Below are positions 6,866 to 46,310 of a stretch of 64,000 nucleotides of DNA, in pieces. The translations under genes were made by a program, and so were the position numbers. Source of the stretch: Spirochaetota bacterium (GTDB taxonomy: Bacteria > Spirochaetota > Spirochaetia > Treponematales > UBA12059); contig JANNSO010000054.1 of the NCBI GenBank assembly GCA_031402655.1, positions 19,058-83,057 of the forward strand, written 5' to 3'. The notes under the pieces are model-generated. The model had not been told where the DNA came from and ran no database searches. It was given only the letters and a program-made list of their open reading frames with translations. The first letter of the stretch is position 1. The number at the start of each line of letters is the position of its first letter.

Positions 6866-7818
6866 GGGTCTTCGATCCGCTCGGACTCTCGGAGGCATTC
6901 GCATTTCGTGAAAATTTAATAACGCAAGGAACCGACACCCTCAGGCTTTACTCGGGACTCTCCGACGGTACGGACGGCCTGTTCGTCGACAGGTTCGCCG
7001 GTTTCATCTCGGCGACGCTTTATGACCCGCTCATGGCCGGAGCGGCCGCGGCGCTCGCAGCGAGCCTGGAATCCCTGTTTCCCGGCGCAGCCGTCCTTGT
7101 CAAAGCCAGAAAAGACGCGTTTACGAACCAATACGAGTATCTGCATAATCCCCTATGGAGGCGCGAACAGGTGCTTACCTCCTGCGAGGGCGGGCTTCGC
7201 TACGAGATTCACAGCGACCCGCGGCACGACTATGGCCTGTATACAGATACGAAAGCAGCCCGATCCGCTCTGGCTGCCGAGTCGGGCGGGAAGACGATAC
7301 TCAACCTTTTTTCGTACACCTGCGCATTTGCCGTAGCCGCAACGGAGGCTGGCGGCAAACCGGTGAACATCGACCCCAGCCGCGATTACCTGGATTGGGG
7401 GGGACGCAACGCCGCATTGAACAAGCAGACTTTCCTGCGCTATGTGGACACGACCCAGGGCTATTTGGCGCGCCACCTGCGGCGGCTGGAATCCGGAAAG
7501 GATAAGCCTTACGATATTTGCGTCATGGATCCTCCCGCCTTCCTCGTAGGTCGCGGATCGGAACGGCTGGCCCGAAACATGTGGAAATTATGGGCAGACC
7601 AGCTCAAAAAATGTCAGTGCCGCCGCTTTATGCTCGTTTTCAATGATAAATCACCGCAAAACCGTAAGGAACAGCAAGAAACGTTACTAAAAATCTTCGA
7701 TTACGCAATACAGTTCGAAGAACTAGCCCAAAGCCCGGATGTTCTTGGCCAACAACTCACCGGAAACCAGGACAGCTTTTACCTCTCTCCCTCGGTATTT
7801 TGGGCAATCCGGGATTGA
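6796..7818 (+). CDS. class I SAM-dependent (rRNA) methyltransferase, RlmI/RlmK-like
   Basis: SAM-MTase core with ILNLFSYTCAF and VMDPPAF motifs. ATG 6796 overlaps the upstream gene by 70 nt. TTG 6862 (TTGA overlap with the upstream stop) is an equally plausible start. Confidence 0.75.
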   Translation: MRQIPPASRFHGVPGATRGDKALRVFDPLGLSEAFAFRENLITQGTDTLRLYSGLSDGTDGLFVDRFAGFISATLYDPLMAGAAAALAASLESLFPGAAVLVKARKDAFTNQYEYLHNPLWRREQVLTSCEGGLRYEIHSDPRHDYGLYTDTKAARSALAAESGGKTILNLFSYTCAFAVAATEAGGKPVNIDPSRDYLDWGGRNAALNKQTFLRYVDTTQGYLARHLRRLESGKDKPYDICVMDPPAFLVGRGSERLARNMWKLWADQLKKCQCRRFMLVFNDKSPQNRKEQQETLLKIFDYAIQFEELAQSPDVLGQQLTGNQDSFYLSPSVFWAIRD

Positions 7819-7829
7819 GCCCTGTCCCC
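7817..7829 (+). repeat. copy of 13-nt word GAGCCCTGTCCCC
   Basis: Exact copy spanning the TGA stop of the methyltransferase gene, in the 18-nt gap between convergent genes. Confidence 0.9.
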
Positions 7830-9846: not shown

Positions 9847-9847
9847 C

Positions 9848-10707: not shown

Positions 10708-12440
10708 TAATTCTTTCCGCCTGCCAGCACGAAGCGCTTGACCTTTTTCGTGGTCGTCATTTCCAGCGGCTCTTCGAGCAGTTTTACCCTGCTGATTCTC
10801 TGGTACGGGAGCATTTCGGCATTCACCTTGTCCACGATAACCTGCATCGCCGCGAGCAGGAGCTCCGTGCCCCGGGCGGCGCTCGCATAGGTATCGGAAA
10901 AATCCTTTGCCGGGTAGATAAAAGCTTCGATTTCCTCGCCGGGGTCATCGCCGGATCCGGAACTCGCCGCAACGTATCCCCGTATCAACACCTGCTCCAC
11001 CTGGGGGAACAACTGGAAGCGGTGTTCTATCTCCTCGGGGTAGACATTCTTGCCGCCCGAGGTAACGATGAGATTTTTGGCCCTGCCGGTTAAGTAAAGA
11101 TAATTATCCCCGTCAATGTAGCCCACATCCCCGGTCTTGAGCCAACCATCCTTGGATAGCACCTCATCCGTGGCAGCCTGGTTTTTATAATACCCCTGCA
11201 TTACCACGGGGCCGCGCACCATGATTTCGCCGCGCTGGTCGTGATCCGGTTCCAGAATCCGCACTTCAAGCTGGGGAATTATTTTGCCGACACTGGTCTC
11301 CTTGTATGCTTCCACAGGATTCAAGGTAAGTATGGGACTCGTTTCCGTTAGTCCATAACCCTGGACAAAATTAATGCCCAACTGGTTGTATTTGCGAAAC
11401 ACGCTGGGAGCCAGCGGTCCGCCACCCGAGATACAGATACGTATCGTCCTGAGGCTAGCCTTGTCCAGCACCGAGCCGAACAATACTTTACCCGGATTCA
11501 TCTTGAATACTTTCTTAATAAACCCCGAGATACCCATCAAGGCACGGATTATTCCGAATACAAACGCTCCTTTTTGCCTAATTCCCTTCATGATTCCGTC
11601 CAGGACCTTGTTAAAAAGCAAAGGTACGCCGAGAAGCATGGTTACTTTTGCTTCCTTTAAATCCTGGAGTATTGCCTTGGTTACCATGCGCTGGCCAAAT
11701 ACAATTTCGGCTCCGACGGATATGGCCTCGATAAAAACCGCAAGCATCGTATAAGAATGGTGGAGCGGCAAAAGGGCGTAAAAAATATCGCTTGCAAAAA
11801 TTTCCATGTTGCACTGCGCAAGAAAGCAGTCGGAAACCAAATTGGCATGCGTGAGCATGACTCCCTTGGGAGTTCCCGTGGTACCGCTGGTAAACAAAAT
11901 CGCCGCCACATCACTCTCTAAGGCCTGTTCAGGCAGGGGATACTCATCCTTGACGGGCAGAGCGTACAGATATCCTGCCTTATTTTTGGAAAGCGACCAC
12001 CGTGCAAGGAGACCAAGCCTGGCAGGCTCGAAGTTATCAAACTTCTCTTCATCGATAAATAAGCCCTTGGCATCCGAAGCTCGGATTATTTTTTCGATTT
12101 CTTCGTTTTTCAGCTGATAATCGATGGGAACGACAACTGCGCCGGCTTGAAGTATCGCCAGATACGCCACAGCCCACTCGGGCGAATTTTTGCCGCTTAC
12201 AGCCACTTTGTCGTGCCTATGAATGCCATTGGCAGCAAGAAATCCCGCAAGTCTCTCGATTTTGTTTAAAGCTTCATTATAGGTTATTGAGTTTCTTCCC
12301 GGATCATAGACGGTAAAGCAAGCCCTGTCCCCAAACTGGGCCGCGGTTAAATGAAACAGTTGGGGAAGAGTCGGCCATTCGCCCGAAAAAAAGCTGCCTT
12401 TATGTTTCTTCAAAGATTCCAGTGGTTCCAAGCCGGGCAT
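10707..12440 (-). CDS. long-chain-fatty-acid--CoA ligase (AMP-dependent synthetase/ligase)
   Basis: 577 aa. AMP-binding motif TSGTTGTPKGVMLTH, GYGLTETS, GWLKTGDVGYID. Confidence 0.9.
   Translation of the reverse strand: MPGLEPLESLKKHKGSFFSGEWPTLPQLFHLTAAQFGDRACFTVYDPGRNSITYNEALNKIERLAGFLAANGIHRHDKVAVSGKNSPEWAVAYLAILQAGAVVVPIDYQLKNEEIEKIIRASDAKGLFIDEEKFDNFEPARLGLLARWSLSKNKAGYLYALPVKDEYPLPEQALESDVAAILFTSGTTGTPKGVMLTHANLVSDCFLAQCNMEIFASDIFYALLPLHHSYTMLAVFIEAISVGAEIVFGQRMVTKAILQDLKEAKVTMLLGVPLLFNKVLDGIMKGIRQKGAFVFGIIRALMGISGFIKKVFKMNPGKVLFGSVLDKASLRTIRICISGGGPLAPSVFRKYNQLGINFVQGYGLTETSPILTLNPVEAYKETSVGKIIPQLEVRILEPDHDQRGEIMVRGPVVMQGYYKNQAATDEVLSKDGWLKTGDVGYIDGDNYLYLTGRAKNLIVTSGGKNVYPEEIEHRFQLFPQVEQVLIRGYVAASSGSGDDPGEEIEAFIYPAKDFSDTYASAARGTELLLAAMQVIVDKVNAEMLPYQRISRVKLLEEPLEMTTTKKVKRFVLAGGKN
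12321..12337 (+). repeat. intragenic copy of the word (AGCCCTGTCCCCAAACT)
   Basis: Exact 12-mer. The 17 nt are identical to array unit 38018..38034. On the coding (-) strand it encodes QFGDRAC of the CoA ligase. Confidence 0.9.
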
Positions 12441-19977: not shown

Positions 19978-20724
19978 TTACCCGTTCTTTGTCTTCCATG
20001 CAACCGCTTTCTGGAAAATTTCAAGGCCTAGTCCACCATCAAACCCTCTCCGCCGATAGGGATGGGTGTCTGCATTTATAAAAGCCTCTGGATGCGGCAT
20101 CATGCCTAAAACCCGACCGCTTTTGTCGCAGATACCGGCGATATCATGTACAGCTCCATTAGGGTTTAACCCGTCATATCGCAAAGCAACATGATGCCCG
20201 CTTTCCAGGCGCTCCAATACGGCCTGGTCCCGGGCCACGAAGCGTCCTTCGCCATGCCGGATTGGAAGCATGCGCGGCCCTAAGCCCGAAGTCCAGACAC
20301 AGGGACCTATCTCGAATCGGACCGGAACCCAGTTGTCTTCGTAGCGGCCGTGATTGTTATGCACCAGAGAAACAACTGGTTCGCCCTTATTGTCAAAGTT
20401 CGGTAAAAGCCCTGTTTTTACCAGGGTCTGGAAGCCGTTGCATATGCCTATGACCAACCCCCCGTCGGCTACGAAACATTTGAGCTCTGTCCCCATTCGG
20501 GAGCGAAACAAGTTTGCCGCTACAAGCCCTGACCCTAAATGATCGCCGAAGGAGAATCCACCGGGAAAACCGAGATACTGATAGGCAGCCAAAACGGATG
20601 GGTCGGCAATAAGGTCTGCAGCATGCATACGCGTAGCATCCGCTCCCGCCATGGTAAATGCAGCAGCCAATTCTTCATCGGCATTAACTCCATATCCAGT
20701 AACAATTAACGCTCGAGTTTTCAT
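19978..20724 (-). CDS. purQ: phosphoribosylformylglycinamidine synthase, glutaminase subunit
   Basis: Class I amidotransferase with GICNGFQ nucleophile elbow and MPHPE. Immediately downstream of purL. Start at ATG 20724. Confidence 0.9.
   Translation of the reverse strand: MKTRALIVTGYGVNADEELAAAFTMAGADATRMHAADLIADPSVLAAYQYLGFPGGFSFGDHLGSGLVAANLFRSRMGTELKCFVADGGLVIGICNGFQTLVKTGLLPNFDNKGEPVVSLVHNNHGRYEDNWVPVRFEIGPCVWTSGLGPRMLPIRHGEGRFVARDQAVLERLESGHHVALRYDGLNPNGAVHDIAGICDKSGRVLGMMPHPEAFINADTHPYRRRGFDGGLGLEIFQKAVAWKTKNG
20482..20494 (+). repeat. one-mismatch variant GAGCTCTGTCCCC inside purQ
   Basis: Same variant as at 33861 and 46290. On the coding (-) strand it encodes MGTEL. Confidence 0.8.
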
Positions 20725-20734
20725 GCAAAATTCC

Positions 20735-23700
20735 TCATACGATTGGCGTTTTGAAAGCATTTTCGATGGATTCAAGGCTCACCCTAATGGCTTCTTTATC
20801 CTCGATCTTAATGGAAAGCAGCTCCTGTTTGGTGGTTTCACCTATGTAACGATGGGGAGAGCCGCGCAGAGTAGCTTCAAAGCGCTCGCGATCCTGCCTC
20901 CTTATGGAAACCACGAAGCGGCCACCTGATTCGCAGAACAATGCCCTTGCAGCATATTCGGCGTATGCATGCTCTTTAGGGCCGGACCGCGGCAAAGCGT
21001 TCAGCGTGACAGTTGCGCCCAGGCGGCCTCCCAGGCACGATTCGGCCAATGCAACGGCAATACCGCCATCTGAGCAGTCGTGGCAGGAACGCACGATCCG
21101 GCCAGAAATAGCGTGCGCAAGCGCTTCATACAACTTTTTCGCGCGTTCAAGGTCAACATCCGGCGCCGGTCCATAAAGAGGCGCCGATACAATGGGGACA
21201 GGGCTCGAATTTAGGTTCGAATTTGGGCTCGAATTTAGGTTCGAATTTGGGCCGGGAAAACTTGAAGCGATGCGCTCGAACATGGTACAGCCGAGCTCTC
21301 CGTTTGTGTCCCCGAGAACATAGATTAGGTTACCCGGTTCCAGGAAGTCGGTGGATATGGACTTGCGCACGTCCGTTACCGAGCCCATGAGGGTGACAAG
21401 CAAAGTCGGCCTGACGGAGATCTTCCTGCCGCCCGCGTAGGCATCGTTTTTCATGGAATCCTTGCCTGATACAAGCGGCAGACCGTAACACAGGCAGGCT
21501 TGGCGAAGCCCTTTGCACGCGCGCACGAGTTGTGCCGCCTTGAAGGCGCCATCGGGGGTGCTCGCCGATTCCACGGGGTCGGGCCAGCAAAAATTGTCCA
21601 GCGCGGCGGCCTTGCCCGGGTCTCCTCCAAGGGCTATGTGCGCGCGGTAGGCTTCGTCTACAGCCATGCGAGCCATGACCGCCGTATCGTAATCGGAGTA
21701 ACGGGGACAGATCCCGTGAGTAACGCTGACGCCGCGCTGCGTGGTATAGTCGATGCGCATCACGCCGCCATCGCTGGGCGCGTCGCGCTTTATGCCGGTA
21801 AAGGGCTTCTCCACGGAACGCCCCTGTACCTCATGGTCGTACTGGCGCACGAGGAATTCCTTGCTGGCTACGTTTGGGTCCGCCAGTATGCGAAGCAGGG
21901 TTTCGGTCCAGTCGCTCTTTATCGCGATTGGGTCGTGGCGTCTGGCGACAGGGCTCCATAGCGCCGGAATCTCCATGGCCGGCAGTCCCCGATGGAGGAA
22001 CTCGAGCGACAAGAGCCCCGCGGGCTGCCCGTTGGCAGTTATTTCTATATAACCGGAATCGGTAAACTCTCCCACAACCGTAGCCTCGACGTCGCGGCGC
22101 AGCGCCAGCTCGGCGAGCTGCGCGATTTTCTCCCCGGCTACCGACAGGCTCATCCTCTCCTGGCTTTCGGATACCAGGATTTCCCAGGGAGAGAGGCCGG
22201 GATATTTGAGAGGACATTTGGAAAGATCAATACTAATACCGCCCGAAGACTCCGCCATCTCGCCCAAACTGGATGAAAGCCCGCCGGCGCCGTTGTCTGT
22301 AATTGCCTCGTACAAGCCAAGGTCGCGCGCCTCCAGGAGAAAATCGGTCATGCGCCGCTGGATTATGGGGTCGCCTATCTGCACGGCGGAAACGGGGCTC
22401 AGCTCGTCGAGAGCCAAGCTGGAGAACGTGGCACCGTGAATGCCGTCCTTGCCCACGCGGCCGCCCAGCATCACCGCCAGAGCTCCGGGCCGCACCGTTT
22501 TTTCCCATGATGGCAGCCCGTTTACGGTCTCGGGCATGATGCCCCCGGTACCGCAAAAGACAAGGGGCTTACCCATGAAACTTTCATCAAATAGAAAAGC
22601 CCCGGCGACGGTCGGGATTCCTGACTGGTTGCCTCCGTCCACGATTCCTTTGTGCACGCCTTCGAGAACCTCGCGCGGGTGCATGAGCCCCAGGGGAATA
22701 TCGGCATCGGGTGTGGCGGGATTGGCAAAGCACAGCACGTTGGTATTGAAGAGCGGCTTGGCACCCATCCCCGTACCTAAAATGTCCCGGTTTACGCCGA
22801 CGATGCCGGTAATCGCGCCTCCATAGGGGTCAAGCGCGCTGGGGCTGTTGTGGGTCTCGGCTTTTACGCACAGAACGCTGCCTTCATGAAAAGCCACGAC
22901 CCCGGCATTGTCGGTGAACACCGAGCGCAAAAAAGGCTTCGAAGGCGCAAGATCCTCCGTGGTTTTTTTTATGTATGTTTTGTAAAGCGACTGAATTATT
23001 TCCGTGGGCTTCCCGGTTTCCTGGTATTTAATGGTGGCATTGAAAATTTTATGCTTGCAATGTTCGCTCCAGGTTTGGGCCAGCATTTCGATCTCGACAT
23101 CGGTAGAATCGACGGGCAAACCGCGTTTCGTCCGTTCCTCGCGAACCGCGGGATCGGCGAAATAAGAGCGGATGCGTTGCATTTCAGGCAGGGTAAGCGC
23201 AAGGAGGCGCGAGCTTGAAAGCTCTTGCAGCGCTGCATCATCCATCGCGGCAAGCGCTATGATTTCGGGGTCAAGGCGGTCGTGCAATGCGGGAGCGGCA
23301 TATTCAGCCGGGGGGCGGGTTCCGCTTGCCCATTCCGCGGCTCCGATTATTACAGAACTCTGGACCAGGGGGTTGTGCAGAAAGGAAGCGGCTCGAAGAG
23401 CCATGCCTCTGTCCAAAATTCCAAAAAGCAGATATTGCCTTGCCGTTGATACCGGCGGCGCATCTTTTCCCGTCTCCAATTTGAGGGCTTCATGCGCCGT
23501 AATGGCAAGCGTGTCGGTGACGCCGGGTTTCCATGCCACTTCCACCAGCCACGACCAGCCGCTCAATTCGGGATCGGCAGCGAGAAATCCGTCGAAACGC
23601 AGGGTTTGCACGACAGGATCCGAAAAAACAAGGCGCGCCAGGTCCTGGGACACAAGCGCGCCTGGCAGTATGACGTCCACTACCGCGACCGCGACTTCCG

Positions 23701-27195: not shown

Positions 27196-28136
27196 GCCAA
27201 AACGAGTTTGCACGACTGCTTTCGATAACGGGCAGGTACCCCGCTATCGCCGTACAGGCTCACGATTTTCCCGACCCGGACGCCGCAGCAGCCGCGTTCG
27301 GCCTAGCGGAGCTTCTTCGACAGCACGGTAGAAGCGCTCGCGCTACCTGGCACGGCATGGCACGCAGCCGAAGCCTAGCCAACCTTGCGCTTGAAACAAG
27401 CATCAAACTGTATCCCGAGCCGCCAAAAGCCCCCGAAGCGCTGATTTTTGTCGACTGTGCTCCCGAAAACGGCAACGTAAGCATGGGAGACGCTTCGATC
27501 ATAGCTGTTATAGACCATCATGTACCCGCACACGAAGTAATTGCTCCATTTGTAGACATACGCATGGAGGCAGGATCCTCCTGCTCCATAATCGCCCAAT
27601 ATTGGAAACAGTCAGCCCTGTCCCCACCGAAGGGATTTGCCACGGCCATGCTGGCCGGCTTGCAATCCGATACCGACTTCCTGTCACTCGGTGTAGGCTC
27701 GCTGGAAGTCGAGGCATTTGCCTTTCTTGCCCCTTTGGCCGACATTAGCGCAGCCACGCGCATGCTTAAAACCAATATGGAACACAGCGAACTGGTGGCC
27801 ATTACCCGGGCTTTGGCGGTCGCCGACGTGTATGGCGACAGGATATTGGCCCAGGTAGACATGAATTGCAGCCAGGAAGCGCTTTCCATAGCCGCGGATC
27901 TGGCCCTACGTGCCCGCGAGGTTAAAATCTCGGTAGTCTACTGCGAGGACGGCGAGCACTACAGGCTATCGGTACGCTCCCGGGACCCGGATATGCCGGC
28001 GTTTATTCTGATACGGGAGTTGACGAGAGGCATCGGGTCGGGTGGTGGCCACGCACGCAGCGCAGGTGGTATCATCGCCAAGAAGGATTTCCCCGGCGAT
28101 GCAAGCCTGCTTACGCGCCTTTCCGCAATTCGATAA
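27192..28136 (+). CDS. DHH/DHHA1-family phosphoesterase (NrnA-like)
   Basis: DHH motif IAVIDHHVP and DHHA1 motif GGGHARSAGG. GTG start overlaps the TPR gene stop. Confidence 0.8.
   Translation: MSQNEFARLLSITGRYPAIAVQAHDFPDPDAAAAAFGLAELLRQHGRSARATWHGMARSRSLANLALETSIKLYPEPPKAPEALIFVDCAPENGNVSMGDASIIAVIDHHVPAHEVIAPFVDIRMEAGSSCSIIAQYWKQSALSPPKGFATAMLAGLQSDTDFLSLGVGSLEVEAFAFLAPLADISAATRMLKTNMEHSELVAITRALAVADVYGDRILAQVDMNCSQEALSIAADLALRAREVKISVVYCEDGEHYRLSVRSRDPDMPAFILIRELTRGIGSGGGHARSAGGIIAKKDFPGDASLLTRLSAIR
27613..27625 (+). repeat. intragenic copy CAGCCCTGTCCCC
   Basis: Exact 12-mer AGCCCTGTCCCC. Encodes QSALSP of the DHH protein. Confidence 0.9.
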
Positions 28137-33453: not shown

Positions 33454-34230
33454 ATGATCGAGAATTCCGATACCGGCGGACGGGTATTATACAAGGACGC
33501 TGACCATCAATTTATATGGCTGGGTTCCGACTCGCACCAGAAACAAGGTGTCGTTCAAACCATGCAATACCTGCTAATCGACAAGGGTCGCGGAGTCCTG
33601 CTCGATCCGGGTGGAGTGCATCTGTTCCCCCGGGTCGTAGCGGCGGTTAGTCGTTATATATCCATAGAAGATATCGATACCATTTTCTTTTCCCACCAGG
33701 ATCCCGACGTTTCCAGCGGGATAGCCCTTTGGCTCGGCGTTACAAAAGCAAGAATGTATATTCCCGACCTGTGGCGGCGATTTCTGCCGCATTTTGGCAT
33801 CATGGATACGAGTCGCATCATGTCCATCGAGGAAACCGGCAAGTCGCTCAAGCTTGCCTCGGGGACAGAGCTCGTTTTTGTTCCGTCTCATTATATGCAT
33901 TCACCTGCGGCATTCTCCTTGTACGATAACCGCGCGCGCATTCTATTTTCCGCCGACATTGGCGGCGCCGTATTCCCCGATGGCCAGGAAACAGTTTTTG
34001 TCGATGATTTCCCCGGACATATCAAGCATATAGAAGGATTTCACAAGCGCCTTATCGGATCAAACTCGGTAGCCAGGCTCTGGGTGGATAATGCCCGCCG
34101 ACTTGCCCCGGACATGATAGCGCCCCAACATGGAGCCATTTACCACGGCGATTCCCTAAAAGCATTCCTTGACTGGCTTTCTGCCCTGAAATGCGGCATC
34201 GATATTGCAGAAACCCTGTACCGGATGTAA
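33454..34230 (+). CDS. MBL-fold di-iron protein (flavodiiron-core / ODP-like, no flavodoxin domain)
   Basis: [29 protein letters not shown] and IAPQHGAIY align with the di-iron ligand blocks of flavodiiron beta-lactamase-like domains. Start at ATG 33454, downstream of the terminator-like hairpin. Confidence 0.75.
33861..33873 (-). repeat. one-mismatch variant (GGGGACAGAGCTC on + strand) inside the MBL-fold gene
   Basis: Encodes SGTEL. Same variant as at 20482 and 46290. Confidence 0.8.
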
Positions 34231-35101: not shown

Positions 35102-36068
35102 TCCGGTGCGTGCCGTGATCACCGACAACCGGTTCGGAAACGTATCGGAGGAACGCGATGTGCTCGACCCGCTGGGAATAGACCTGGAAGTAGCGCAGTG
35201 CCGCTCATCCGCCGATGTGGGACGCGCATGCGCCGATGCCGACGCGGTACTGGTAAACATGGCTCCCGTGGATGCCGAAGCAATAGCTGCCATGCAGAAT
35301 TGCCGGGTAATTGCCCGTTACGGAATAGGCCTCGACAATATCGATCTTGACGCCGCACAAAAGCGAAATATTAAAGTTTACAACGTAACTGGCTATTGCG
35401 ACGATGATGTGGCTCAGCACGCGTTGGGTATGCTTCTCGCAATGCTCCGCGACATACCAGGCAGGAACGCTGCCGTTCATAACGGGGCATGGAACCTGCC
35501 TGCAGCCCAATACACCGTAGCCGGAGCCAGCATCGGGGTATTAGGATTCGGCGGATCTGGCAAAGCGTTTACGCGATCGATACTTGCCTTGAATCCCGCA
35601 CGCATCATGGTCTACAGTCCCAGTACCGATCAAGCAAAGCTTGACGCGCAATTGGGGTCTCTCGCTTCCCTCATGGGCATCCCGCTTATCGCCGTAACCC
35701 GCGACAGGCTCCTCGCGGAAGCATCGATTATAGCGATACACCTGCGGCTCTGCGACGACACGCGAGCCCTGTTTAACGATGACGCCTTTGCCCGCATGCG
35801 ACGCGGCAGTTTTCTCGTAAACACCGCGAGAGGTGCTATCATTGACCCTAATGCTCTGCAGCGTGCGCTCGATTCAGGTATTATTTCAGGCGCCGCTCTC
35901 GATGTGCTCGATACCGAACCACCCCCCATCGGCCACCCCCTTTTGGGACACCCGCGAGTGCTTTTATCCGATCATTGCGCTTATCGGTCTGTGCGCTCCA
36001 TACATGAGCTGAAGCGCCGTACAGCGGAAAACGCAGCCAGAGGGTTAGGACTCCTGCCACCCGAATAA
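35073..36068 (+). CDS. D-isomer-specific 2-hydroxyacid dehydrogenase (CtBP-like)
   Basis: NAD fold [11 protein letters not shown] and catalytic region [15 protein letters not shown] 35106 is an alternative start that avoids overlap with the MCP gene. Confidence 0.85.
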
Positions 36069-36177
36069 AGTCCCCTCAGTTACCGCCCCCCAAGCGCTTC
36101 CTTTGCACCCAGCAATTCATGCCCTGAACCTCCCAAAATGAGGCTCCCGGTAAAATATAGCGCGATACGGATATAAT

Positions 36178-36190
36178 CAGCCCTGTCCCC
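36178..36190 (+). repeat. intergenic copy CAGCCCTGTCCCC
   Basis: Exact 12-mer, followed by AAGGGC (a short GCCC/GGGC stem is possible). Confidence 0.9.
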
Positions 36191-36265
36191 AAGGGCATAT
36201 TTTCGATCTGGTCCTGTTTCGAACTAGCCGTTGCAACAATTCAGCCGCCAGAGTATTCTTGCTCA

Positions 36266-37345
36266 GTGAATACAACTAACAACGATCGCACCACGACACC
36301 CCGACGCTCCGAACTGGCAATCTGCGGCATGGAAGCCGTACGAGCTCTCGCAGACGCGCGCCCCGATGCAGTCCGTCGCCTCTTTTTCAGCGAGGAAGCG
36401 GCACCCGCCTTTGGCTCCCTCTGTTCTCATTTGGCCACGCAGAAAAGACTATACCGCATAGCCGAATCTGCGGAACTTGAACGGCTTTCCGGCAGCATTC
36501 ACCATCAAGGCGTCGTAGCTATGATTCACGACGATAAGCTTCAAACGCTCACCAGCGACGTGATTCAAGCCTGGGCAGCAGAAAACGCCAGAGTCCTGCT
36601 GCTCGACCGGGTAGGCGACGACCATAACCTCGGATCCATCGCAAGGTCCGCAGCCTTTTTCGGGTACAGCGCAATTATACTTACTAAAACGGAAGGCTCG
36701 GCGAAACTATCAACGAGCGCATATCGCGTAGCCCGCGGCGGGCTCGAACGCTTGCAGGTTTATATCGAAGACAGTGCACAAGCCTGCATCAAGCGATGCA
36801 AGGGATTACTAACCAGTGCGGGAGCCGATCATAGAGGAGGAATCGATCTCCGCGATTTCAAAGCCAAACACGGAACCGGGAACCTGCCTCCCGTAATCAT
36901 CCCCAATGAAAATCCACGAGGTTCCGGCCACGCAAGAACCGGCGAACCAGAAATCGCCCCAAGCCCCAGCTCTCGTGGAATACTCGTTGTATTCGGCAAT
37001 GAGGAGACGGGATTATCGGCAGGCGCCAGGGCTTCTTGTGATTACCTGATCCGCATTTGCGGTATTGGCTCAGTCGAAAGCCTCAATGTTTCTCAAGCAG
37101 CAACTGTTTTTCTCTACGAGCTTGCACCCACAGCCTGGACTGCCCAACCTTCTTTTTCGAGCCCGCCTGACAATGAATCACACGTTTCGCAAGGTGACTT
37201 CCCGAAGGCTTTTCGCCCAAGTGGTCAGTCACGACCCACGGATTCCAATAAGAGACCACGCCCGCAACATGACTCCAGAAATCCATTGCGCACGCCTTCC
37301 GGAACTCCGGGGAAACCCAGGTTTACCCGCCCCGACAGGAAGTAA
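36266..37345 (+). CDS. TrmH/SpoU-family RNA 2'-O-methyltransferase (RlmB-like) with basic low-complexity tail
   Basis: SpoU motifs LLLDRVGDDHNLGSIARSA, VVFGNEETGLS and ESLNVSQAATVFLYEL. GTG start. About 70-aa Pro/Arg/Ser-rich C-terminal tail. Confidence 0.85.
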   Translation: MNTTNNDRTTTPRRSELAICGMEAVRALADARPDAVRRLFFSEEAAPAFGSLCSHLATQKRLYRIAESAELERLSGSIHHQGVVAMIHDDKLQTLTSDVIQAWAAENARVLLLDRVGDDHNLGSIARSAAFFGYSAIILTKTEGSAKLSTSAYRVARGGLERLQVYIEDSAQACIKRCKGLLTSAGADHRGGIDLRDFKAKHGTGNLPPVIIPNENPRGSGHARTGEPEIAPSPSSRGILVVFGNEETGLSAGARASCDYLIRICGIGSVESLNVSQAATVFLYELAPTAWTAQPSFSSPPDNESHVSQGDFPKAFRPSGQSRPTDSNKRPRPQHDSRNPLRTPSGTPGKPRFTRPDRK

Positions 37346-37351
37346 AAACGC

Positions 37352-37747
37352 ATGCGGGTCATGCTCGATACGAATTGCATCGACGCGCTGCTCAAGGACA
37401 TAGAAACCTATTCAGCCTTGCTGAACCGCAAGGATATTCGGCTGCTGGTAACTCAAATACAAATAGAGGAACTACAGGCTATTCCTGAAGCGCAAAAGCG
37501 CCAAGCAGCGCTTGCGATAGCAAAAACTCTATGCTCAACACTTACTGCACCTTCAACAAACGGGGAACAAGGACAATGGGACTTCAAACATGCCCATGAT
37601 AAAGCCATACTTGCAGCCTCAAAACACTGCCGCATGCTTGTTTCTAATGATTTAGGCCTTCTTAACCTTGCAAATGCAAATGGGAAACGGGCAATTACCT
37701 GGAGTGTTTTTGTGAAGAATTTTGTATTTTCAGCTAAAAAGTTTTAA
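37352..37747 (+). CDS. PIN-domain protein (VapC-like nuclease fold)
   Basis: 131 aa. MLDTN at the N-terminus, then QIEEL, HDKAILAA and LVSNDLGL, placing four acidic residues in the PIN pattern. No adjacent antitoxin-sized ORF seen. Confidence 0.55.
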   Translation: MRVMLDTNCIDALLKDIETYSALLNRKDIRLLVTQIQIEELQAIPEAQKRQAALAIAKTLCSTLTAPSTNGEQGQWDFKHAHDKAILAASKHCRMLVSNDLGLLNLANANGKRAITWSVFVKNFVFSAKKF

Positions 37748-37812
37748 AGACTAAATAAAACCGAAAATATTAAGACTTTGGGGGGACCTCTGTTTACTCT
37801 CACCCCATACAT

Positions 37813-38105
37813 GAGCCCTGGTACAAGCTTCTTATACGCGACTCCTATACGAGCCCTGTCCCCGAACTACCTTGCGCCTCTGTACACGCCACATGCAGGT
37901 GCCCTGTCCCCGAACTAACCCCGACATACCCTGCCCCTCTATACACTTCACCTATACGAGCCCTGTCCCCGAACTTCCCCCGACATACCCTGCCCTTCTG
38001 TACACATCACATGCAGGAGCCCTGTCCCCAAACTACCTTGCCCCTCTATACACTTCACCTATACGAGCCCTGTCCCCGAACTTCCCCCGACATACCTCCC
38101 TCACC
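37813..38105 (+). repeat. tandem array: 5 intact + 1 degenerate copies of the GAGCCCTGTCCCC word in 48/59-bp units
   Basis: Word starts at 37851, 37899 (GTG variant), 37958, 38017 and 38065, with a degenerate copy at 37813. Spacing is 48, 59, 59, 48 bp and all copies share one orientation. Inter-word segments are homologous to each other (accttgc/accctgc-ccctct-a/g-tacac..). The array ends 53 bp before the RAYT-like gene. Confidence 0.9.
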
Positions 38106-38157
38106 AAACTTTTTTATTTTTCGAATGCACTACAGTAAATCACTGCGTTGATTTAGT

Positions 38158-38673
38158 ATGAGACACAGAAGAATCTTACAAGACGGGGCTTGCTATCATG
38201 TCACGGCGCAAGTCAATAAAAAGGATATGATCCTTGACATTTGCTCCACCAAAGAACTATTCATAGAGGTTCTAAAACGAGCTAAGGCAAAATACAAATT
38301 CCGCGTGGAAAATTTTACCGTCATGGGAAATCATTATCACTTGATGATTCAACCAAAAAACGGGATTTCTTTATCCGCAATAATGCGGTGGATAATGAGC
38401 GTATTTGCCATGGCATATAATCGCCGCACTAATTCCTGCGGGCATGTATGGAATGGCAGATTTTTTTCAAGGATTGTTGAGAACCTCGATCAGTTTTTAA
38501 AAATATTCGGCTATATTGACGAGAATCCCGTTATGGCGCAATTGGTTGAGAATAAAACAGATTGGCGATTCGGAGGAATTTGGCATCACCGTCGGGGCTT
38601 ACACTCGATTGTCGATGAATCACCTGAGTTTATATTACGTTTTTTCCCAGAACACAGGTGCTTTTGCCCTTAA
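38158..38673 (+). CDS. REP-associated tyrosine transposase-like protein (IS200/IS605-type Y1 HUH, COG1943)
   Basis: 171 aa. ACYHVTAQ, HUH motif GNHYHLMIQP, GHVWNGRFFSRIV, and catalytic Tyr context FGYIDENPVMAQLV. The gene is visibly AT-richer (~42% GC in the first 100 nt) than its surroundings. Confidence 0.8.
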   Translation: MRHRRILQDGACYHVTAQVNKKDMILDICSTKELFIEVLKRAKAKYKFRVENFTVMGNHYHLMIQPKNGISLSAIMRWIMSVFAMAYNRRTNSCGHVWNGRFFSRIVENLDQFLKIFGYIDENPVMAQLVENKTDWRFGGIWHHRRGLHSIVDESPEFILRFFPEHRCFCP

Positions 38674-38767
38674 CACCAAGTTCTATCACGAGGAGGACAA
38701 TAAAACAAAAACCAGATGCAAGCCTTTCGCTGGCACCTGGCTTTCCATAACGCTTCAGAAACAATAA

Positions 38768-39313
38768 TTATGGTGCCGTCGCCACCATGAGCACTGCAGG
38801 ATTTGAAAAATCGAGAGGAATTGTCACTGCTCTCGCAGCCAATTCAAGGTTTAGCATATAAAGAGCCTGCTTGCTATCCCCCATAAGTTCCAGGTTCTGC
38901 AGTATTTCGTTGGCATTTTTCTCTTCCTCGAGCTGCTCATTGATATACCAGCGAACAAGATTCTCGGTACCATAATCCTTTTCTGCTTGAGCGAGTTCCA
39001 GCAATTCCCGAATTGAGGCTGTTACCCATTTCTCGTGCTTGAGAACCTCCTGAAAAGTTGCCTTTATGTCAGCGCTTTTTATTTCGGGCGCATCAATCCT
39101 GGCAAGAACCGGAGCTGCTCCCTGATCGATAAGATAGGTATAGAATTTCATTGCATGAAACATCTCTTCGTGGAACTGGGTCATAAGCCATTTCGCTACA
39201 CCTAGATAGCCAGTGCCTGCGAGCTTGGCGGACATTGCCATATACAGGTAGGCGGAATACATTTCTCTGTTTATCTGAAGATTAATCCTGTCTGCAAGTT
39301 TCTGTGAAAGCAT
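38768..39313 (-). CDS. ferritin (non-haem, Ftn-type)
   Basis: INREMYSAYLYMAMS and QFHEEMFHAMKF ferroxidase-centre blocks. 181 aa. Confidence 0.9.
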   Translation of the reverse strand: MLSQKLADRINLQINREMYSAYLYMAMSAKLAGTGYLGVAKWLMTQFHEEMFHAMKFYTYLIDQGAAPVLARIDAPEIKSADIKATFQEVLKHEKWVTASIRELLELAQAEKDYGTENLVRWYINEQLEEEKNANEILQNLELMGDSKQALYMLNLELAARAVTIPLDFSNPAVLMVATAP

Positions 39314-39423
39314 GTGTTTCTCCTTGTAACGTAATAATTAGCAATTCGGCTGGTCTACGGTGCCGTTTTTAGTAATATAGTGAAACCTGGATAGAAATTC
39401 AAATTTGCCGGGCAGTTAATGAT

Positions 39424-39592
39424 GTTCTCTGATTATCAAGCCAAGTATTAACAGGTTGTTGAAAAAGCTTGTGGCTTTTCCAACAATCTTAAACATTCCT
39501 CGCATTTGATTACAAATGCTACGGTAATGTTACATTTTGGAAGTGTTGAAAATCCTCATCCGAGGTTTTTCAACACCCAATTAAAGGACTCC
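39424..39592. repeat. second, end-decayed copy of the multi-hairpin element (matches 10537..10707)
   Basis: Core 39456..39578 differs from 10571..10693 at 6 of ~123 positions by eye. All three hairpins are retained. The terminal GGGACCTCT / AGAGGTCCC ends are degenerate (TTCTCTGAT.. / ..TTAAAGGACTCC). Confidence 0.85.
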
Positions 39593-39644
39593 TCTATAAA
39601 CTATGCCTCCCCTTTGAAACACCCAGCCTGGTTTTCCCCTGGCT

Positions 39645-39656
39645 GGGGACAGGGCT
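39645..39656 (-). repeat. intergenic copy (GGGGACAGGGCT on + strand)
   Basis: Exact 12-mer in reverse orientation. Overlaps a CCCAGCC..GGCTGGG stem. Confidence 0.9.
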
Positions 39657-39812
39657 TGAGAAGAAGGTGCTGCCTGGATGTCGCAATTTTCAAGCTGCAA
39701 AAATCAAATATTGGAAGCTCCAATAACCCTGTCGGTTATCAGAACTTCCAATATGTCTGTTTGACCAAAGAAATGCCGTTAAAACATATTCCTTGTTATT
39801 TTATTTTTTTAC

Positions 39813-40550
39813 ATGCATAATAAAACGAGTATGAACAATCTGTTTATCTTATATTCTGCCCTTGCAGCCTTCGGCGTAGGGGTAACCGTTGTAGATCTAT
39901 TTGGAATCTTCGACCATTTTTCAGGTTCGGCATCCGGTGGGCATGCTGGCAGCCACGATAGTGATAACGATGGCGGGCATCCCGCCGATACGGTATCGCA
40001 CGACGGAGCAGGCCATGATTCCACCCACCACGACGCCATCAGCATCAGCCCGATGCATGATGCCCACCATGGCAACACTCTTCATGCGTCAGGGCAGGAA
40101 ACTCATTCCGGTTCATATGTAGCGTCCGCCGACTCAGGCACAAAAATCGTCGCAAAAACCCTGGCTGTTTTGCGCTCTGGCGTTTATTTCAGCCTGGGGG
40201 CGGGGCTTACTGGTTTATTTGCCCTGTTAACCAAAGTTTCGACGGTTCCGAGTCTCCTATGGAGTGCAGGCGCAGGCATTTTTATAATGATTTTTGCGCG
40301 ACTTTTACGCTCCTTTATCCGCAAAGACCTGGATTCCTCGCTAAAACCCGAAGAATTTCTCATGGAACCGGCTATAGTGAGCGTTTCTGTCCAGCCCGGG
40401 GCGATGGGCAAGGCAATCGTACGTCATGCGGACCTTGAAACGGAGTTATTTGTCCGTGCTAAGGATGCTTTGCTTGTAGTAAAAAAAGGCACGATGGTAA
40501 GAATTGTGGATTATACCGACGACTGCTATTGGATAGAACCCGAGTTATAA
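39813..40550 (+). CDS. NfeD-like membrane protein with histidine-rich loop
   Basis: TM segments, a ~65-aa loop with about 14 His (GGHAGSHDSDNDGGHPADTVSHDGAGHDSTHHDAISISPMHDAHHGNTLH), and a C-terminal beta-rich domain (GKAIVRHADLETELFVRAKD..GTMVRIVDY). Sits directly upstream of flotillin genes, as NfeD/YuaF does. Confidence 0.55.
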   Translation: MHNKTSMNNLFILYSALAAFGVGVTVVDLFGIFDHFSGSASGGHAGSHDSDNDGGHPADTVSHDGAGHDSTHHDAISISPMHDAHHGNTLHASGQETHSGSYVASADSGTKIVAKTLAVLRSGVYFSLGAGLTGLFALLTKVSTVPSLLWSAGAGIFIMIFARLLRSFIRKDLDSSLKPEEFLMEPAIVSVSVQPGAMGKAIVRHADLETELFVRAKDALLVVKKGTMVRIVDYTDDCYWIEPEL

Positions 40551-43236: not shown

Positions 43237-44764
43237 ATCGCTGATCGCGACCTTTCGCAAAATACATGCGCTTGTCGGCAAGGGACAACAACTCCTCCAA
43301 TTCCGGAAGCTCAGAGCCGATGGCAGTGGCGGTTCCTATGCTTGCGGAAAGTGTTATAACAATGGTTCCGGAATTTATCGTCGCGCAGCATACCAATTGC
43401 CTCAGTTTGCCTGCGACAAGCTTTACGTCATCCTCGCTGGTCTCAGGAAACGCAAATACGAATTCATCGCCGCCGTACCTCCCTAGAAAATCGCAGGTGC
43501 GGAGCGCAGAAGCGCACAGCTGACTGACCAGGCAGAGAGCCCTGTCCCCGATTGTATGCCCGTGCATATCGTTAATTGTCTTGAAAGCATTCAAATCCAT
43601 GATGGCAACGCTGAATGACCGGCCATAACGTCTGGCACGCTCCAACTCGAGACGCCCCCGCTCAAAAAAGCTGCGGCGATTCATGAGGCTCGTAAGCTCA
43701 TCCGTCGAAGCAAGGTGTAAAAGCCTATCGTTCAGGGCTACCTGGTCGCTTATGTCGCTCAGCCGGTAAATCGTCCCCATCAAGTGGCTGTTCTTGTCCA
43801 ATAATATTGTAGCCGCAACGGTATAGCTTCTCTTGCCTTGCAGCGTGGCTACCTGAAAAGCAAGCGGCGGTTCTGCCGGAAGGGGCAGTTCCTGTTGCAC
43901 TAGAAACGGCAGGAGAACATCATGTGCCGAAACTACCGATTTATCATTCTTCGTGGCTAAAGCGGGCAATAGATCAGAAGCCTTCCGATTGTAATCGACA
44001 ACCGTTCCCAAAGCATCGGCAACAATGAGAGCATCGCCCATTTGCTCAAAAATCCTATCACGGGCAAGCGGTAGAAGATCATGCAGCCGAAACCGCGTGA
44101 AACCCCAGGCAAAGAAAGGTGCTGCAGCAGCCAGCAATACCGGAGAAAAGTCTATGCCGTTGGGAGTCAGGTTCAGCAGATACAGGATGTTACCCACCCA
44201 AGGCAAAAGCGAACCTGCCAAAAAGCATAAAGCCTGCCTTCTCCGGTAAATTTTTTGCGTAACTGCGCCTTTAATAAAAACAAAAGTTCCAAAAACCAGT
44301 GCCAGCTCAAGATATGCAATACTCACAAAATACCAGGGTCCTCGCTCGAAAGCCAGAATGGTCATTCCATTTATAACCCTGATGGTCGGGTTTATATAAA
44401 ACAGCGAATGCTTATCCTGCAATAAAACAAGCACGAACGTGATGGCCGGAATGACAAAAAACATGGGAGCCGGCAACTTGAAACGGCTGCCTCCCTCATA
44501 ATCCCGGACTATCAGAATCCAGAAAGCAGGAAGAAATGCAATGCCGATATATTCTATCCGGATCAGCAGCAATACCAGCTCAAGCGACTGGGACTTGAGC
44601 TCAAGGGCATACCCGCCGGCATAAAATACAAAACAGACGCAAAGAAAAGCAAACCAACATGTCCCCTGCTTTTTCAAAGCCTGAATAAACGCGAATACGG
44701 CCAGGGTACCGCTGCTTCCAGCGCCCATCAACAAGGCAATAAGCACAAACATGTCTATTTGCAT
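43235..44764 (-). CDS. polytopic membrane PAS-GGDEF diguanylate cyclase
   Basis: About 7 N-terminal TM helices and a PAS-like segment. GGDEF domain with NAFKTINDMHGHTIGD and RYGGDEFVF. Confidence 0.85.
   Translation of the reverse strand: MQIDMFVLIALLMGAGSSGTLAVFAFIQALKKQGTCWFAFLCVCFVFYAGGYALELKSQSLELVLLLIRIEYIGIAFLPAFWILIVRDYEGGSRFKLPAPMFFVIPAITFVLVLLQDKHSLFYINPTIRVINGMTILAFERGPWYFVSIAYLELALVFGTFVFIKGAVTQKIYRRRQALCFLAGSLLPWVGNILYLLNLTPNGIDFSPVLLAAAAPFFAWGFTRFRLHDLLPLARDRIFEQMGDALIVADALGTVVDYNRKASDLLPALATKNDKSVVSAHDVLLPFLVQQELPLPAEPPLAFQVATLQGKRSYTVAATILLDKNSHLMGTIYRLSDISDQVALNDRLLHLASTDELTSLMNRRSFFERGRLELERARRYGRSFSVAIMDLNAFKTINDMHGHTIGDRALCLVSQLCASALRTCDFLGRYGGDEFVFAFPETSEDDVKLVAGKLRQLVCCATINSGTIVITLSASIGTATAIGSELPELEELLSLADKRMYFAKGRDQR
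43537..43549 (+). repeat. intragenic exact copy GAGCCCTGTCCCC
   Basis: On the coding (-) strand GGG GAC AGG GCT CTC encodes GDRAL, within the conserved GHxxGD block of the GGDEF domain. Confidence 0.9.
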
Positions 44765-44806: not shown

Positions 44807-46132
44807 TCAGAGAATCTGCCCCAGCAGAATAACATACAATACCGCAATAAGGAAAAAAATCATGAGCGGCAGGGCTATGCGCCGAATCGTCGTGGCCGAA
44901 CCCGTCCCAAAGTGTTCCGCACTGACAGCCATGCAGACGTGCAATGGACTCAACATCATGCCGGCGTAACCCGCTGCCCCGGAAAGAACCACGACGGCCT
45001 CCCGTGGAAAGCTTCCTTCCGCCGAGAACAGGCCAAGCACAATGGGAAAAGCCAAGCCGACATAACCGAATCCAACCCCGGTAATCAATCCGGCAATGAA
45101 CGGAAGCAGCACAGCCACAATTAACGGAGAAATACCGAGTGTGGATAGCTCTGCCGTTGCGGAGCCAGCGACACCCCCGGCTTCCAGCAGCGCTGAAAAG
45201 CAGCGGATACCGGCGATCACGGCGACCATCTTGATCGATGCCGGAGTTATGGATTTCTTGAATATTCCCTTCGCCCTGTTACGAAAGATGATAAACAGGG
45301 AAGCTGCTGCTAGACCGATCAATATCGGGAAGAATCGCCCCGCTAAAATGTTTACCCTGGCCGAAAAACCTAAATATTGCCCCAGAAGCTTCCATGCGAC
45401 ATCAAAAAAAACATACGTTCCCAAAACTATTGCCAGAGGTGCAAATCCTTTTATCGCGAGCGAAAGCCGGGACCCAGAGTTGCGGGCGGGGGACAGGGCT
45501 CCGCCAATTCCGGCCTCGTTGATGGTAGCAGAGTTTTTTGTCCGTTTCAGGATAAAAATAGTACCTAGAACAAACAAAGACACCGGAGCGTATAGATTCA
45601 GGAGTATAAGCCGGCCCACCGATATGTTCGCGAGTGTAGAAGTAAGGATAAAAGCTGGGTATAAAGGCCAACTCAGCTCGAGATTATGCCTGAACCAGTA
45701 ATTTATCGCTGAAAGCCTATCCGCCCCTTGAGTACGGCCAGGATCTAGCGCATCCACAAGTGGAGCGGAAAGGACCGCCCCTCCGGGCATCGGTAGCGTT
45801 CCAATCAGTAAAGGCGCGATAGGCAAAGCGGCATTGCTTGTTCTTGTAATAACCCGAATCGCATTGTTGAATGCATCCAGTGCGCCTGCGTTTTTCATGG
45901 CAATGGAAAAAGCCATAATACTAACCATCAATCCAAGAAGAAGCAGAGTATCCGGATCGAGAATCTCGAGAATTATGGTTAAAGCCACCTGTTTTGGGGA
46001 CAGGTCTTGGAAAAAGGCAAAAACAACACCTCCTGCAAGTGCTGCCAGGCCCAAATGGACTTTTTTTGCGCTCGCAAGAACGATAAGGGCAAATATTACA
46101 AGAATTTGAAATAGAACTGGAACAACCGACAC
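44807..46132 (-). CDS. polytopic integral membrane protein (DUF401-like putative transporter)
   Basis: 441 aa, about 10-12 TM helices, GTLPMPGGAVLSAP block. GTG start 7 nt after GGGGAGG. The family assignment is from memory and is tentative. Confidence 0.65.
   Translation of the reverse strand: MSVVPVLFQILVIFALIVLASAKKVHLGLAALAGGVVFAFFQDLSPKQVALTIILEILDPDTLLLLGLMVSIMAFSIAMKNAGALDAFNNAIRVITRTSNAALPIAPLLIGTLPMPGGAVLSAPLVDALDPGRTQGADRLSAINYWFRHNLELSWPLYPAFILTSTLANISVGRLILLNLYAPVSLFVLGTIFILKRTKNSATINEAGIGGALSPARNSGSRLSLAIKGFAPLAIVLGTYVFFDVAWKLLGQYLGFSARVNILAGRFFPILIGLAAASLFIIFRNRAKGIFKKSITPASIKMVAVIAGIRCFSALLEAGGVAGSATAELSTLGISPLIVAVLLPFIAGLITGVGFGYVGLAFPIVLGLFSAEGSFPREAVVVLSGAAGYAGMMLSPLHVCMAVSAEHFGTGSATTIRRIALPLMIFFLIAVLYVILLGQIL
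45489..45501 (-). repeat. intragenic exact copy (GGGGACAGGGCTC on + strand)
   Basis: The coding (-) strand reads GGA GCC CTG TCC CCC = GALSP. Confidence 0.9.
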
Positions 46133-46194: not shown

Positions 46195-46216
46195 GGATTA
46201 TTTCGCGGCAGCATAT

Positions 46217-46310
46217 AAAGTGGGGACAGGGCTCAGCTAAAACGGCTTACAAAGTGGGGACAGGGCTCAGCTAAATCGGTATATAAAGTGGGGACAGAGC
46301 TCACTATAAA
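46217..46310 (-). repeat. 3 x 34-bp tandem direct repeats, each carrying the word
   Basis: AAAGTGGGGACAGGGCTCAGCTAAA(A/T)CGG.. units start at 46217, 46251 and 46285. Word copies are at 46222, 46256 (exact) and 46290 (GAGCTC variant). Lies between the TonB-like stop and the DUF401-like promoter. Confidence 0.9.

Follow-up and report, generated by a model that had tools for sequence, protein, structure and literature searches.

A compact RAYT-class gene of Spirochaetota and a short, hairpin-less word that probably form one system

We analysed a 64,000-nucleotide stretch of contig JANNSO010000054.1 from a Spirochaetota bacterium (assembly GCA_031402655.1; hereafter the window; G+C 53.5%). It carries a gene for a 171-amino-acid (aa) HUH/Y1 nuclease of the RAYT class (tyrosine transposases associated with repetitive extragenic palindromes, REPs) and, just upstream of this gene, a tandem array of a short word that is strongly over-represented in the window. 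Enzyme and word are probably parts of a single system that does not depend on the usual DNA hairpins, as the pairing of gene and array recurs in about 70 related spirochaete loci. Across these loci, gene and word are coupled in position and orientation, the word dialect beside the gene matches the dialect dispersed around it, and words have been retained over the long term. Our preferred reading, which we consider fairly likely, is that the gene encodes a domesticated, vertically inherited RAYT-class nuclease/ligase of single-stranded DNA (ssDNA) and that the non-hairpin word (core GGGGAC(A/G)G) is its cognate DNA. This would be a minimal RAYT case, with a 171-aa enzyme that has no accessory DNA-binding domain and a target of about a dozen bases without secondary structure, and it bears on the host role of RAYTs and on target recognition in the large Group-1/TIRYT branch, which has no hairpins.

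The gene encodes a RAYT-class protein

A first-pass annotation, made from the sequence, had described the open reading frame (ORF) at 38158..38673 as a RAYT-like HUH Y1 transposase gene, and this identification held. The product contains the motifs CYHV, GNHYHL (HUH), GHVWNGRFF and YIDENP, and it matched the Pfam family Y1_Tnp (PF01797) with an E-value of 4e-13. The HUH motif is H59-Y-H61 (within NHYH, residues 58–61) and the catalytic tyrosine is Y119 of YIDENP (residues 119–124). In an alignment of 20 homologues, H59, H61, Y119, N123 and P124 were invariant.

Assignment to the RAYT class, rather than to ordinary IS200/IS605 TnpA, is supported by family models, sequence matches and predicted fold. 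First, the protein scored 88.3 bits against the NCBIfam model NF047646 (REP_Tyr_transpos), which passes the cut-off of 80, and 27 bits against the IS200 equivalog, which fails the cut-off of 55. Second, its sole sequence match in the PDB was 4ER8, the TnpA-REP protein of E. coli. Third, 4ER8 was also the top fold match of an AlphaFold model of the protein (pLDDT 87; two short helices past the core), with a TM score of 0.72–0.75 over 161 columns, compared to about 0.5 for the IS200, IS608 and ISDra2 transposases. Pfam gave Y1_Tnp alone for the 171-aa protein, and a C-terminal helix-turn-helix (HTH) domain (Bac_DnaA_C, HTH_23, HTH_28) was not found in it. The ratio of nonsynonymous to synonymous substitution rates (dN/dS) was 0.09–0.11, with synonymous sites saturated, and the sequence comparisons indicate a gene under purifying selection whose catalytic motifs are intact.

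The gene is present once in the 64-kb window. The only exact matches to the protein lay on two short contigs of freshwater-sediment metagenome runs, and homologues at 55–78% identity came from Spirochaetota metagenome-assembled genomes (MAGs), such as those of Rectinemataceae, Treponemataceae and Spirochaetaceae. At E ≤ 1e-30, this compact family (proteins of ~172 aa, across Spirochaetota) comprised 126 clusters at 50% identity. The window shares its gene order with the homologous locus L083, in which a 2-hydroxyacid dehydrogenase gene, a SpoU methylase gene and a small PIN-like ORF precede RAYT, followed by ferritin (on the opposite strand) and Band_7 genes. The two RAYT proteins are 71% identical and the DNA is 75–78% identical over ~17 kb. 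A third locus, L085 (RAYT 78% identical), also has RAYT followed by ferritin, and the site is syntenic in genomes that have diverged by ~25% in nucleotides. Genomes with two or three RAYT paralogues usually show 69–77% nucleotide identity between them, confined to the coding region. Low copy number (judged in the window), vertical inheritance and divergent paralogues correspond to the housekeeping-like properties that set RAYTs apart from insertion sequences (PMC5581495). A phage origin of the gene was rejected, as no relatives were present in viral contigs.

These observations bear on the reading that the locus is a complete, mobile insertion sequence (IS) of the IS200/IS605 type, with this gene as its transposase and the flanking words as its ends. 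The locus does share the HUH/Y1 catalytic fold and the Y1_Tnp match with such elements, inverted words lie on its two sides (37851-38077 on the plus strand and 39645 on the minus strand), and one MAG contains copies that are 88–95% identical including their flanks. However, the protein falls below the IS200 equivalog cut-off and has the Y---NP motif of class-2 RAYTs in place of the Y---Q of the IS200 type (PMC6006769, Table 1). Neither tnpB, subterminal hairpins nor IS ends were found at the locus, whose neighbours are the SpoU, PIN-like and ferritin genes, and there are no multiple identical copies in the 64 kb. Moreover, the gene keeps an identical chromosomal position in diverged genomes, a host ferritin gene would lie inside the element, and paralogues usually resemble one another at the 69–77% level in the coding region only. 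A complete IS of this kind, which the annotation had named as an outcome that would count against its proposal, is thus largely refuted and is to us the least probable of the readings considered.

Signs of possible duplication were seen at other loci. In L034, tandem partial RAYT fragments lie upstream of the main copy (~6380-6840). In Treponema sp. Po218_bin51 (L024, L065, L066), two RAYT copies are 88–95% identical, and the similarity extends over 136 bp of upstream and 320 bp of downstream sequence. Both cases may reflect recent duplication of a unit made up of the gene plus its flanks.

A short word forms an array upstream of the gene

In this genome the word reads GGGGACAGGGCTC on one strand and GAGCCCTGTCCCC on the other. 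We counted 15 copies of its 11-mer core (GCCCTGTCCCC) in the 64 kb, where 100 shuffles gave an expectation of 0.00, and 19 copies of the 13-mer are present if at most one mismatch is allowed. The array upstream of RAYT (Tandem Repeats Finder score 233) contains five good copies of GAGCCCTGTCCCC, all on the plus strand, at 37851-37863, 37899-37911 (a GTG variant), 37958-37970, 38017-38029 and 38065-38077. The extended form of the array word is GAGCCCTGTCCCC(G/A)AACT, the copies are spaced by 48/59/59/48 bp, and the 48- and 59-bp units are versions of a single repeat, with and without an 11-bp indel. Ahead of the good copies, at ~37823, is a sixth, degenerate one (GAGCCCTGGTACA); the array ends near 38105, 53 bp from the RAYT ATG. 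The first-pass annotation had reported this distance, the five same-direction words at 48/59-bp spacing, the over-representation of the word and, as the next word on the 3′ side, an inverted copy at 39645 beyond ferritin; each of these was reproduced. A scan of the plus strand between array and ATG for sigma-70 promoters gave no promoter-like site, and matches to known RNA families across 36000-40500 were at chance level only.

Several incidental features of the array were recorded. An 88-aa ORF (37872-38138, plus strand) that runs through it is repeat-derived and of low complexity, and is almost certainly spurious. The two 59-bp units (37908-37937 and 37967-37995, minus strand) each contain one canonical G-quadruplex motif, GGG(G)CAGGGTATGTCGGGG(G)…GGGG; the 64-kb window has only three such motifs, and arrays of other lineages are generally without them. 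Arrays also disrupt assembly from short reads: many homologues are situated at the ends of contigs, and contigs of run X1 break inside the window's array.

Gene and word are linked across Spirochaetota

A scan of one genome per species for homologues of the protein yielded ~70 spirochaete loci and ten non-spirochaete loci. Variants of the word, with the core GGGGAC[AG]G, were over-represented in nearly all of the spirochaete loci, and the spirochaete words were over-represented in none of the ten others. Relatives of the word across loci include GCTCTGTCCCC, GCACTGTCCCC, CCTCTGTCCCC, CCTCCGTCCCC, GCTCCGTCCCC and GGTCTGTCCCC, at densities of 0.2–2.6 per kb.

The link to the gene is one of position and of orientation. 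In 62 of 68 loci, the 200 bp that precede the RAYT start contained a word, compared to 59 of 304 comparable gaps upstream of other genes, taken as controls (odds ratio 43, p = 2e-29). The annotation had also raised the possibility that other copies of the gene lack neighbouring word arrays, which was not borne out. There are usually 2–5 direct copies upstream, the last one 40–110 bp from the ATG. Considering strand, GGGGAC(A/G)G… was on the RAYT sense strand in 53/61 upstream words (53:8, p = 3e-9), while words upstream of other genes showed no orientation bias (55:69). Copies in the opposite orientation are often found 240–600 bp downstream of RAYT.

The type of word is coupled to the gene as well. 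Counted away from the gene, the dominant dispersed variant was the same as the gene-proximal variant in 36 of the 42 informative loci, which involved seven variants. The GGGGACGGAGG and GGGGACAGAGC dialects fall in separate large clades of the protein tree. Where a genome has two paralogues (as with the pairs L011/L020 and L026/L030), words of the AGGGAC and GGGGAC types tend to adjoin different paralogue clades (L020/L030 vs L011/L026/L017; L056 vs L050; L048 vs L063). That word type tracks paralogue clade is suggested by these sequences, but the pattern is not clean. With dialects that go with particular enzyme clades, and at times with particular paralogues of a single genome, specificity should be open to direct tests with oligonucleotides.

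The clade to which the window belongs (window, L083 and L085) has the reversed polarity, with …CTGTCCCC upstream of the gene and GGGGACAG… beyond ferritin. Either the geometry need not be the same throughout the family or this clade functions in another way. Inversion between inverted words was considered as a cause and rejected on geometry, as it leaves the gene-relative layout unchanged.

Literature searches with the word sequences returned unrelated primers only, and no description of this RAYT–word system came up in searches that combined RAYT with spirochaetes, or Treponema with REP and IS200. The suggestion in the annotation that the lineage might be poorly described is consistent with this, as Spirochaetota are not treated in the RAYT literature examined.

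One locus outside the phylum by its label, L059 (contig CAXXOZ010000005.1, binned as 'uncultured Parasporobacterium sp.', Firmicutes), has both CCTCCGTCCCC words and a RAYT of the spirochaete type (41% identity). Either the contig was mis-binned or gene and words were transferred horizontally together.

The word has no hairpin and is arranged in direct arrays

The repeat had been described as non-palindromic and unidirectional, and both properties were confirmed. No hairpin was predicted for the array units on either strand (ssDNA folding z-scores of −0.12 to +1.5 relative to shuffles), and the word has no GTAG tag; its core has TGTC/CGTC, without a stem after it. Neighbouring words at most 150 bp apart, taken over all loci, formed 179 direct pairs and 53 inverted pairs, with a preferred spacing of 20–50 bp. 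Different arrays have the word alone in common, and the spacers are locus-specific. Because of the CGTC/TGTC in the core, we also considered CGTC-tagged REPs, which have been reported in Spirochaetes (PMC3733652), and rejected them; they are palindromes with stems of 8–9 bp and were reported without an associated transposase (PMC3733652).

Two loci have words with some symmetry. In L016, the variant upstream of RAYT is GGGACAGACC (9750-9935), which, read as CGGGGACAGACCCCG, could form a hairpin with a 5-bp stem; downstream of RAYT (10770-11080) a different variant, GGGACAGAGC, is found in the same orientation. In L049, 24 copies of the palindrome-like GGGGTCTGTCCCC are present in 20 kb.

The array might instead be an ordinary slippage minisatellite beside the decaying relic of a transposase gene, with the two adjacent by chance. 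Consistent with slippage, the length of the array differs between assemblies by exactly one double unit: it is 107 bp (48+59) shorter in the Logan contig of one run, for which assembly collapse is possible. This reading is nevertheless strongly disfavoured, and we consider it very improbable, as a relic would not be expected to show a dN/dS of ~0.1 with invariant catalytic residues, the gene and the word adjoin in 62/68 independent loci, and it is the word, not the spacer, that is common to arrays and orthologous sites.

Words persist at matching sites and occur within genes

Comparison with L083 indicates how long words are kept. The word is intact there in the 46-kb array, in the DUF401 gene, on the far side of ferritin and ahead of SpoU, four sites in all, and the intergenic DNA around the shared words is essentially unalignable. 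At the 46-kb array, the L083 orthologue has two words with different spacers, and array spacers differ between the two genomes. In the window, word density is ~20-fold higher in intergenic than in coding DNA, and over all loci, with a loose word pattern and crude ORF calls, we counted 1.94 words per kb intergenic and 0.59 per kb coding.

Some words lie inside real coding domains, namely DHH, GGDEF, DUF401 and probably an AMP-binding enzyme. The word in the GGDEF domain differs from L083 by two substitutions only, and thus arose or decayed by point change. In purL, the word is part of an insert of ~26 aa (…PNSNLNSSPNSNLNSSPVP…; …GPNSNLNSSPNSNLNSSPVPIV…), with its own 12/24-bp tandem repeat, that lies in frame in a variable loop, where other spirochaete PurL proteins have different inserts and the closest homologue has none. 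The pattern of coding words fits selection, or a conversion-like drive, acting on the word itself, and conservation at matching sites together with the coding copies hints at a host-level role rather than pure parasitism.

A related observation concerns SpoU. In L083, the 3′ end of the methylase gene (9225-9290) encodes a non-conserved C-terminal tail with three or four GGGGACAG-type words, and the window SpoU has a low-complexity, Pro/Ser/Arg-rich tail at the corresponding place (37130-37345). Word arrays may have been absorbed into this reading frame.

The copies in coding regions and their positional conservation keep alive the main rival to our reading, in which the word is the site of some other host function (a nucleoid or replication protein, a DUS/USS- or Chi-like signal, or a regulatory site) and RAYT merely carries promoter-region copies, which might be its operator, while the dispersed ones are no target of the enzyme. 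Words in conserved coding domains, one of which came or went by substitutions alone, would be expected of such a site, as would words held at matching positions across ~25% nucleotide divergence, which suggests host function. Lineage dialects on a constant core resemble those of uptake sequences, and no transposition junctions were seen in metagenome contigs. On the other hand, the link to RAYT is far above that to other genes, and the orientation of the word is fixed only at RAYT. Distant non-spirochaete relatives, which lack the dispersed spirochaete words, still carry GGGG(A/T)(C/G)A(C/G) on both sides, and within a genome there is a partial match between word variant and paralogue. To our knowledge, uptake and Chi sequences do not form head-to-tail arrays whose spacers are specific to each locus. 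Taking both sides together, we consider a separate host function of the word unlikely.

Relation to known systems

The closest parallel to the spirochaete enzyme and its word is a group that is already known but barely studied. TIRYTs (TIRtrons) are RAYT-like genes that have, in place of flanking REPs, inverted repeats with the common motif GGGGWSAS (Di Nocera et al, 2013; PMC3733652), and some of their repeats have moderately abundant, clustered copies (PMC3733652). They correspond to TnpA-Y1 subclass 2.1 and to the Group 1 RAYTs of Bertels et al, 2017 (PMC5581495) (Quentin et al, 2018; PMC6006769). Proteins of subclass 2.1 have a median length of 238 aa and a C-terminal HTH, and they have no REPs (PMC6006769). 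Reports on TIRYTs consist of sequence observations only (PMC3733652; PMC6006769).

Two findings connect the spirochaete loci to this group. First, GGGGACAG fits GGGG[AT][CG]A[CG] (GGGGWSAS). Second, the nearest non-spirochaete relatives show the published TIRYT layout, with one or two copies of GGGGTCA(G/C) ahead of the gene and one to six copies of the complement behind it. These relatives, at 33–37% identity, are proteins of 280–300 aa with Y1_Tnp plus an HTH_23/28-type tail (the HTH is present in L075, L076, L080 and L081), and the next-best non-spirochaete matches to the RAYT protein are of the subclass-2.1 type. For both reasons the spirochaete system, judged from sequence, is best read as a relative of the TIRYT kind. 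The two share a RAYT-class HUH/Y1 protein with NH[YF]H, low copy number and the absence of REP hairpins, as well as a short G-rich flanking motif whose orientation differs between the two sides of the gene; the motif is often repeated several times and is dispersed to a moderate degree. The window has this flank layout with five words upstream and one inverted word downstream, in reversed polarity, and most family members have it in the usual polarity.

There are also clear differences. The spirochaete protein has 171 aa and lacks the C-terminal HTH reported for all of subclass 2.1, and its tyrosine motif is YIDENP, compared to YIELNP or Y[IV]HLNP. The repeat is a word of 11–13 nt and not a long terminal inverted repeat; words are dense, mostly in head-to-tail arrays, and also occur in genes. 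The polarity of the flanking words is reversed in the clade of the window, and the host phylum is Spirochaetota. The loci analysed here document it as a probable enzyme–word system that spans Spirochaetota.

REP/REPIN-RAYT systems (E. coli TnpA-REP, 4ER8; Groups 2 and 3) provide the best sequence and fold match. As in those systems, a single-copy, vertically inherited, housekeeping-like gene is flanked by a sequence that is over-represented genome-wide (here 11–13 nt), and clusters reiterate the repeat with local flanking DNA, as REP clusters do (PMC3733652). The over-represented flanking sequence that characterizes RAYTs is thus present, with a unit shorter than the 16-mers used by Bertels et al. 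REPs, however, are palindromes of 20–40 bp with a GTAG tag that spread as inverted doublets and rarely form head-to-tail pairs (PMC3733652), whereas the spirochaete word has neither palindrome nor GTAG and its direct pairs outnumber inverted ones. The first-pass annotation had called the relationship between RAYT and repeat atypical. This reading is supported, with two refinements: the GGGGWSAS motifs of TIRYT/Group-1 genes are a precedent, and upstream direct arrays are the norm in the spirochaete family.

Short over-represented genomic words are also known from DNA uptake sequences (DUS) and uptake signal sequences (USS), Chi and cyanobacterial HIP1. These are likewise non-palindromic, with lineage dialects on a constant core and with copies in coding DNA. 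The spirochaete word differs in being tied tightly and directionally to one HUH-nuclease gene and in forming tandem arrays, and no connection to competence or RecBCD is evident.

Proposed mechanism

In the mechanism that we propose, the RAYT enzyme would recognise the word, probably as ssDNA exposed at replication forks. Recognition would be on one DNA strand, by analogy with other HUH/Y1 enzymes, and in this case without a hairpin. The enzyme would then cut and rejoin DNA near the word, and repeated cut-and-join events, or template switching between words, could give rise to head-to-tail arrays of word plus local spacer and to dispersed copies. The array upstream of RAYT may be a platform to which the enzyme itself binds, with the role of a master copy or of an autoregulation site (operator).

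Some observations weigh against the word being the cognate DNA of a domesticated RAYT enzyme. All loci were selected for carrying a RAYT gene, so that only carriers were compared. The match between word type and paralogue clade is partial, and the upstream words of the window's clade point opposite to the 53/61 gene-side words of the family. Words in coding domains, and a difference by substitutions only, are not predicted by simple cut-and-paste mobility. Contigs from the three metagenome runs that hold this genome contained no excision or insertion junctions and no variation in the 46-kb array, and the 107-bp difference in the upstream array was the sole variation seen.

A bolder extension of the proposal is that a compact, hairpin-independent RAYT 'writes' and homogenises an 11–13-nt single-strand word genome-wide across Spirochaetota, including at conserved positions in genes, with dialects that co-evolve with paralogues and with a host function (replication- or recombination-linked genome punctuation) rather than selfish spread. 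We regard this extension as doubtful and offer it tentatively. If true, a 'writing' RAYT would reveal a recognition mode shared with Group-1/TIRYT RAYTs.

Other features of the window

The positions of the gene, its neighbouring ferritin gene, the arrays and the dispersed words are collected in Table 1.

Table 1. Positions of the RAYT gene, word copies and neighbouring features in the window
Feature	Position	Strand	Basis or remark
RAYT-class HUH/Y1 nuclease gene, 171 aa	38158..38673	+	Pfam, NCBIfam, PDB, fold, dN/dS
Tandem array, 48/59-bp units, five good copies of GAGCCCTGTCCCC	37790..38105	+	Sequence, Tandem Repeats Finder
Distal inverted word AAGCCCTGTCCCC, beyond ferritin, 975 bp downstream of RAYT	39645..39657	-	Site kept in L083 and L085
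Second direct array, three words (46222, 46256, 46290), 34-bp period	46211..46303	-	Repeat and word scan
Dispersed intergenic word upstream of SpoU methylase gene	36178..36190	+	Conserved in L083, flanks unalignable
Dispersed intergenic word between convergent genes	7817..7829	+	Word scan
Word and 12/24-bp tandem repeat, in frame in purL (ORF 20735-23785)	21194..21270	-	Repeat and word scan
Word inside GGDEF domain coding sequence	43537..43549	+	L083 differs by two substitutions
Word inside DUF401 gene	45489..45501	-	Site common to L083, there as GCTCTGTCCCC variant
Word inside DHH domain coding sequence	27613..27625	+	Word scan
Word at N-terminal edge of AMP-binding enzyme ORF (residues ~36-40), probably coding	12320..12332	+	Word scan
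GAGCTCTGTCCCC variant inside ORF 19978-20775 (minus strand)	20482..20494	+	Word scan
GAGCTCTGTCCCC variant in conserved coding sequence (encodes SGTEL)	33861..33873	-	L083 has AGGGACAGAGCTC there
Ferritin gene	38768..39313	-	Downstream neighbour of RAYT

Between SpoU and the array, a 131-aa ORF (37352-37747, plus strand) has a sub-threshold match to PIN_4 (E = 0.009) and is conserved in L083, L085 and L001; it is the small PIN-like ORF referred to above.

The window also contains two copies, 92–94% identical, of a dispersed repeat of ~133 bp (39446-39578 and 10561-10693). Its predicted fold has three strong hairpins, with a minimum free energy of −33.4 kcal/mol (z = −7.5). The 39446-39578 copy was considered as the true cognate REP of the RAYT gene and rejected, as it is absent from L083 and L085, both of which keep the gene and the words. 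The repeat has no Rfam match and is absent from the syntenic L083 region. In contigs of the source metagenome, its k-mer depth was 200–6900x, compared to ~8x for its flanks, with many different adjoining sequences, and it looks like a very high-copy structured element or one similar to a miniature inverted-repeat transposable element (MITE).

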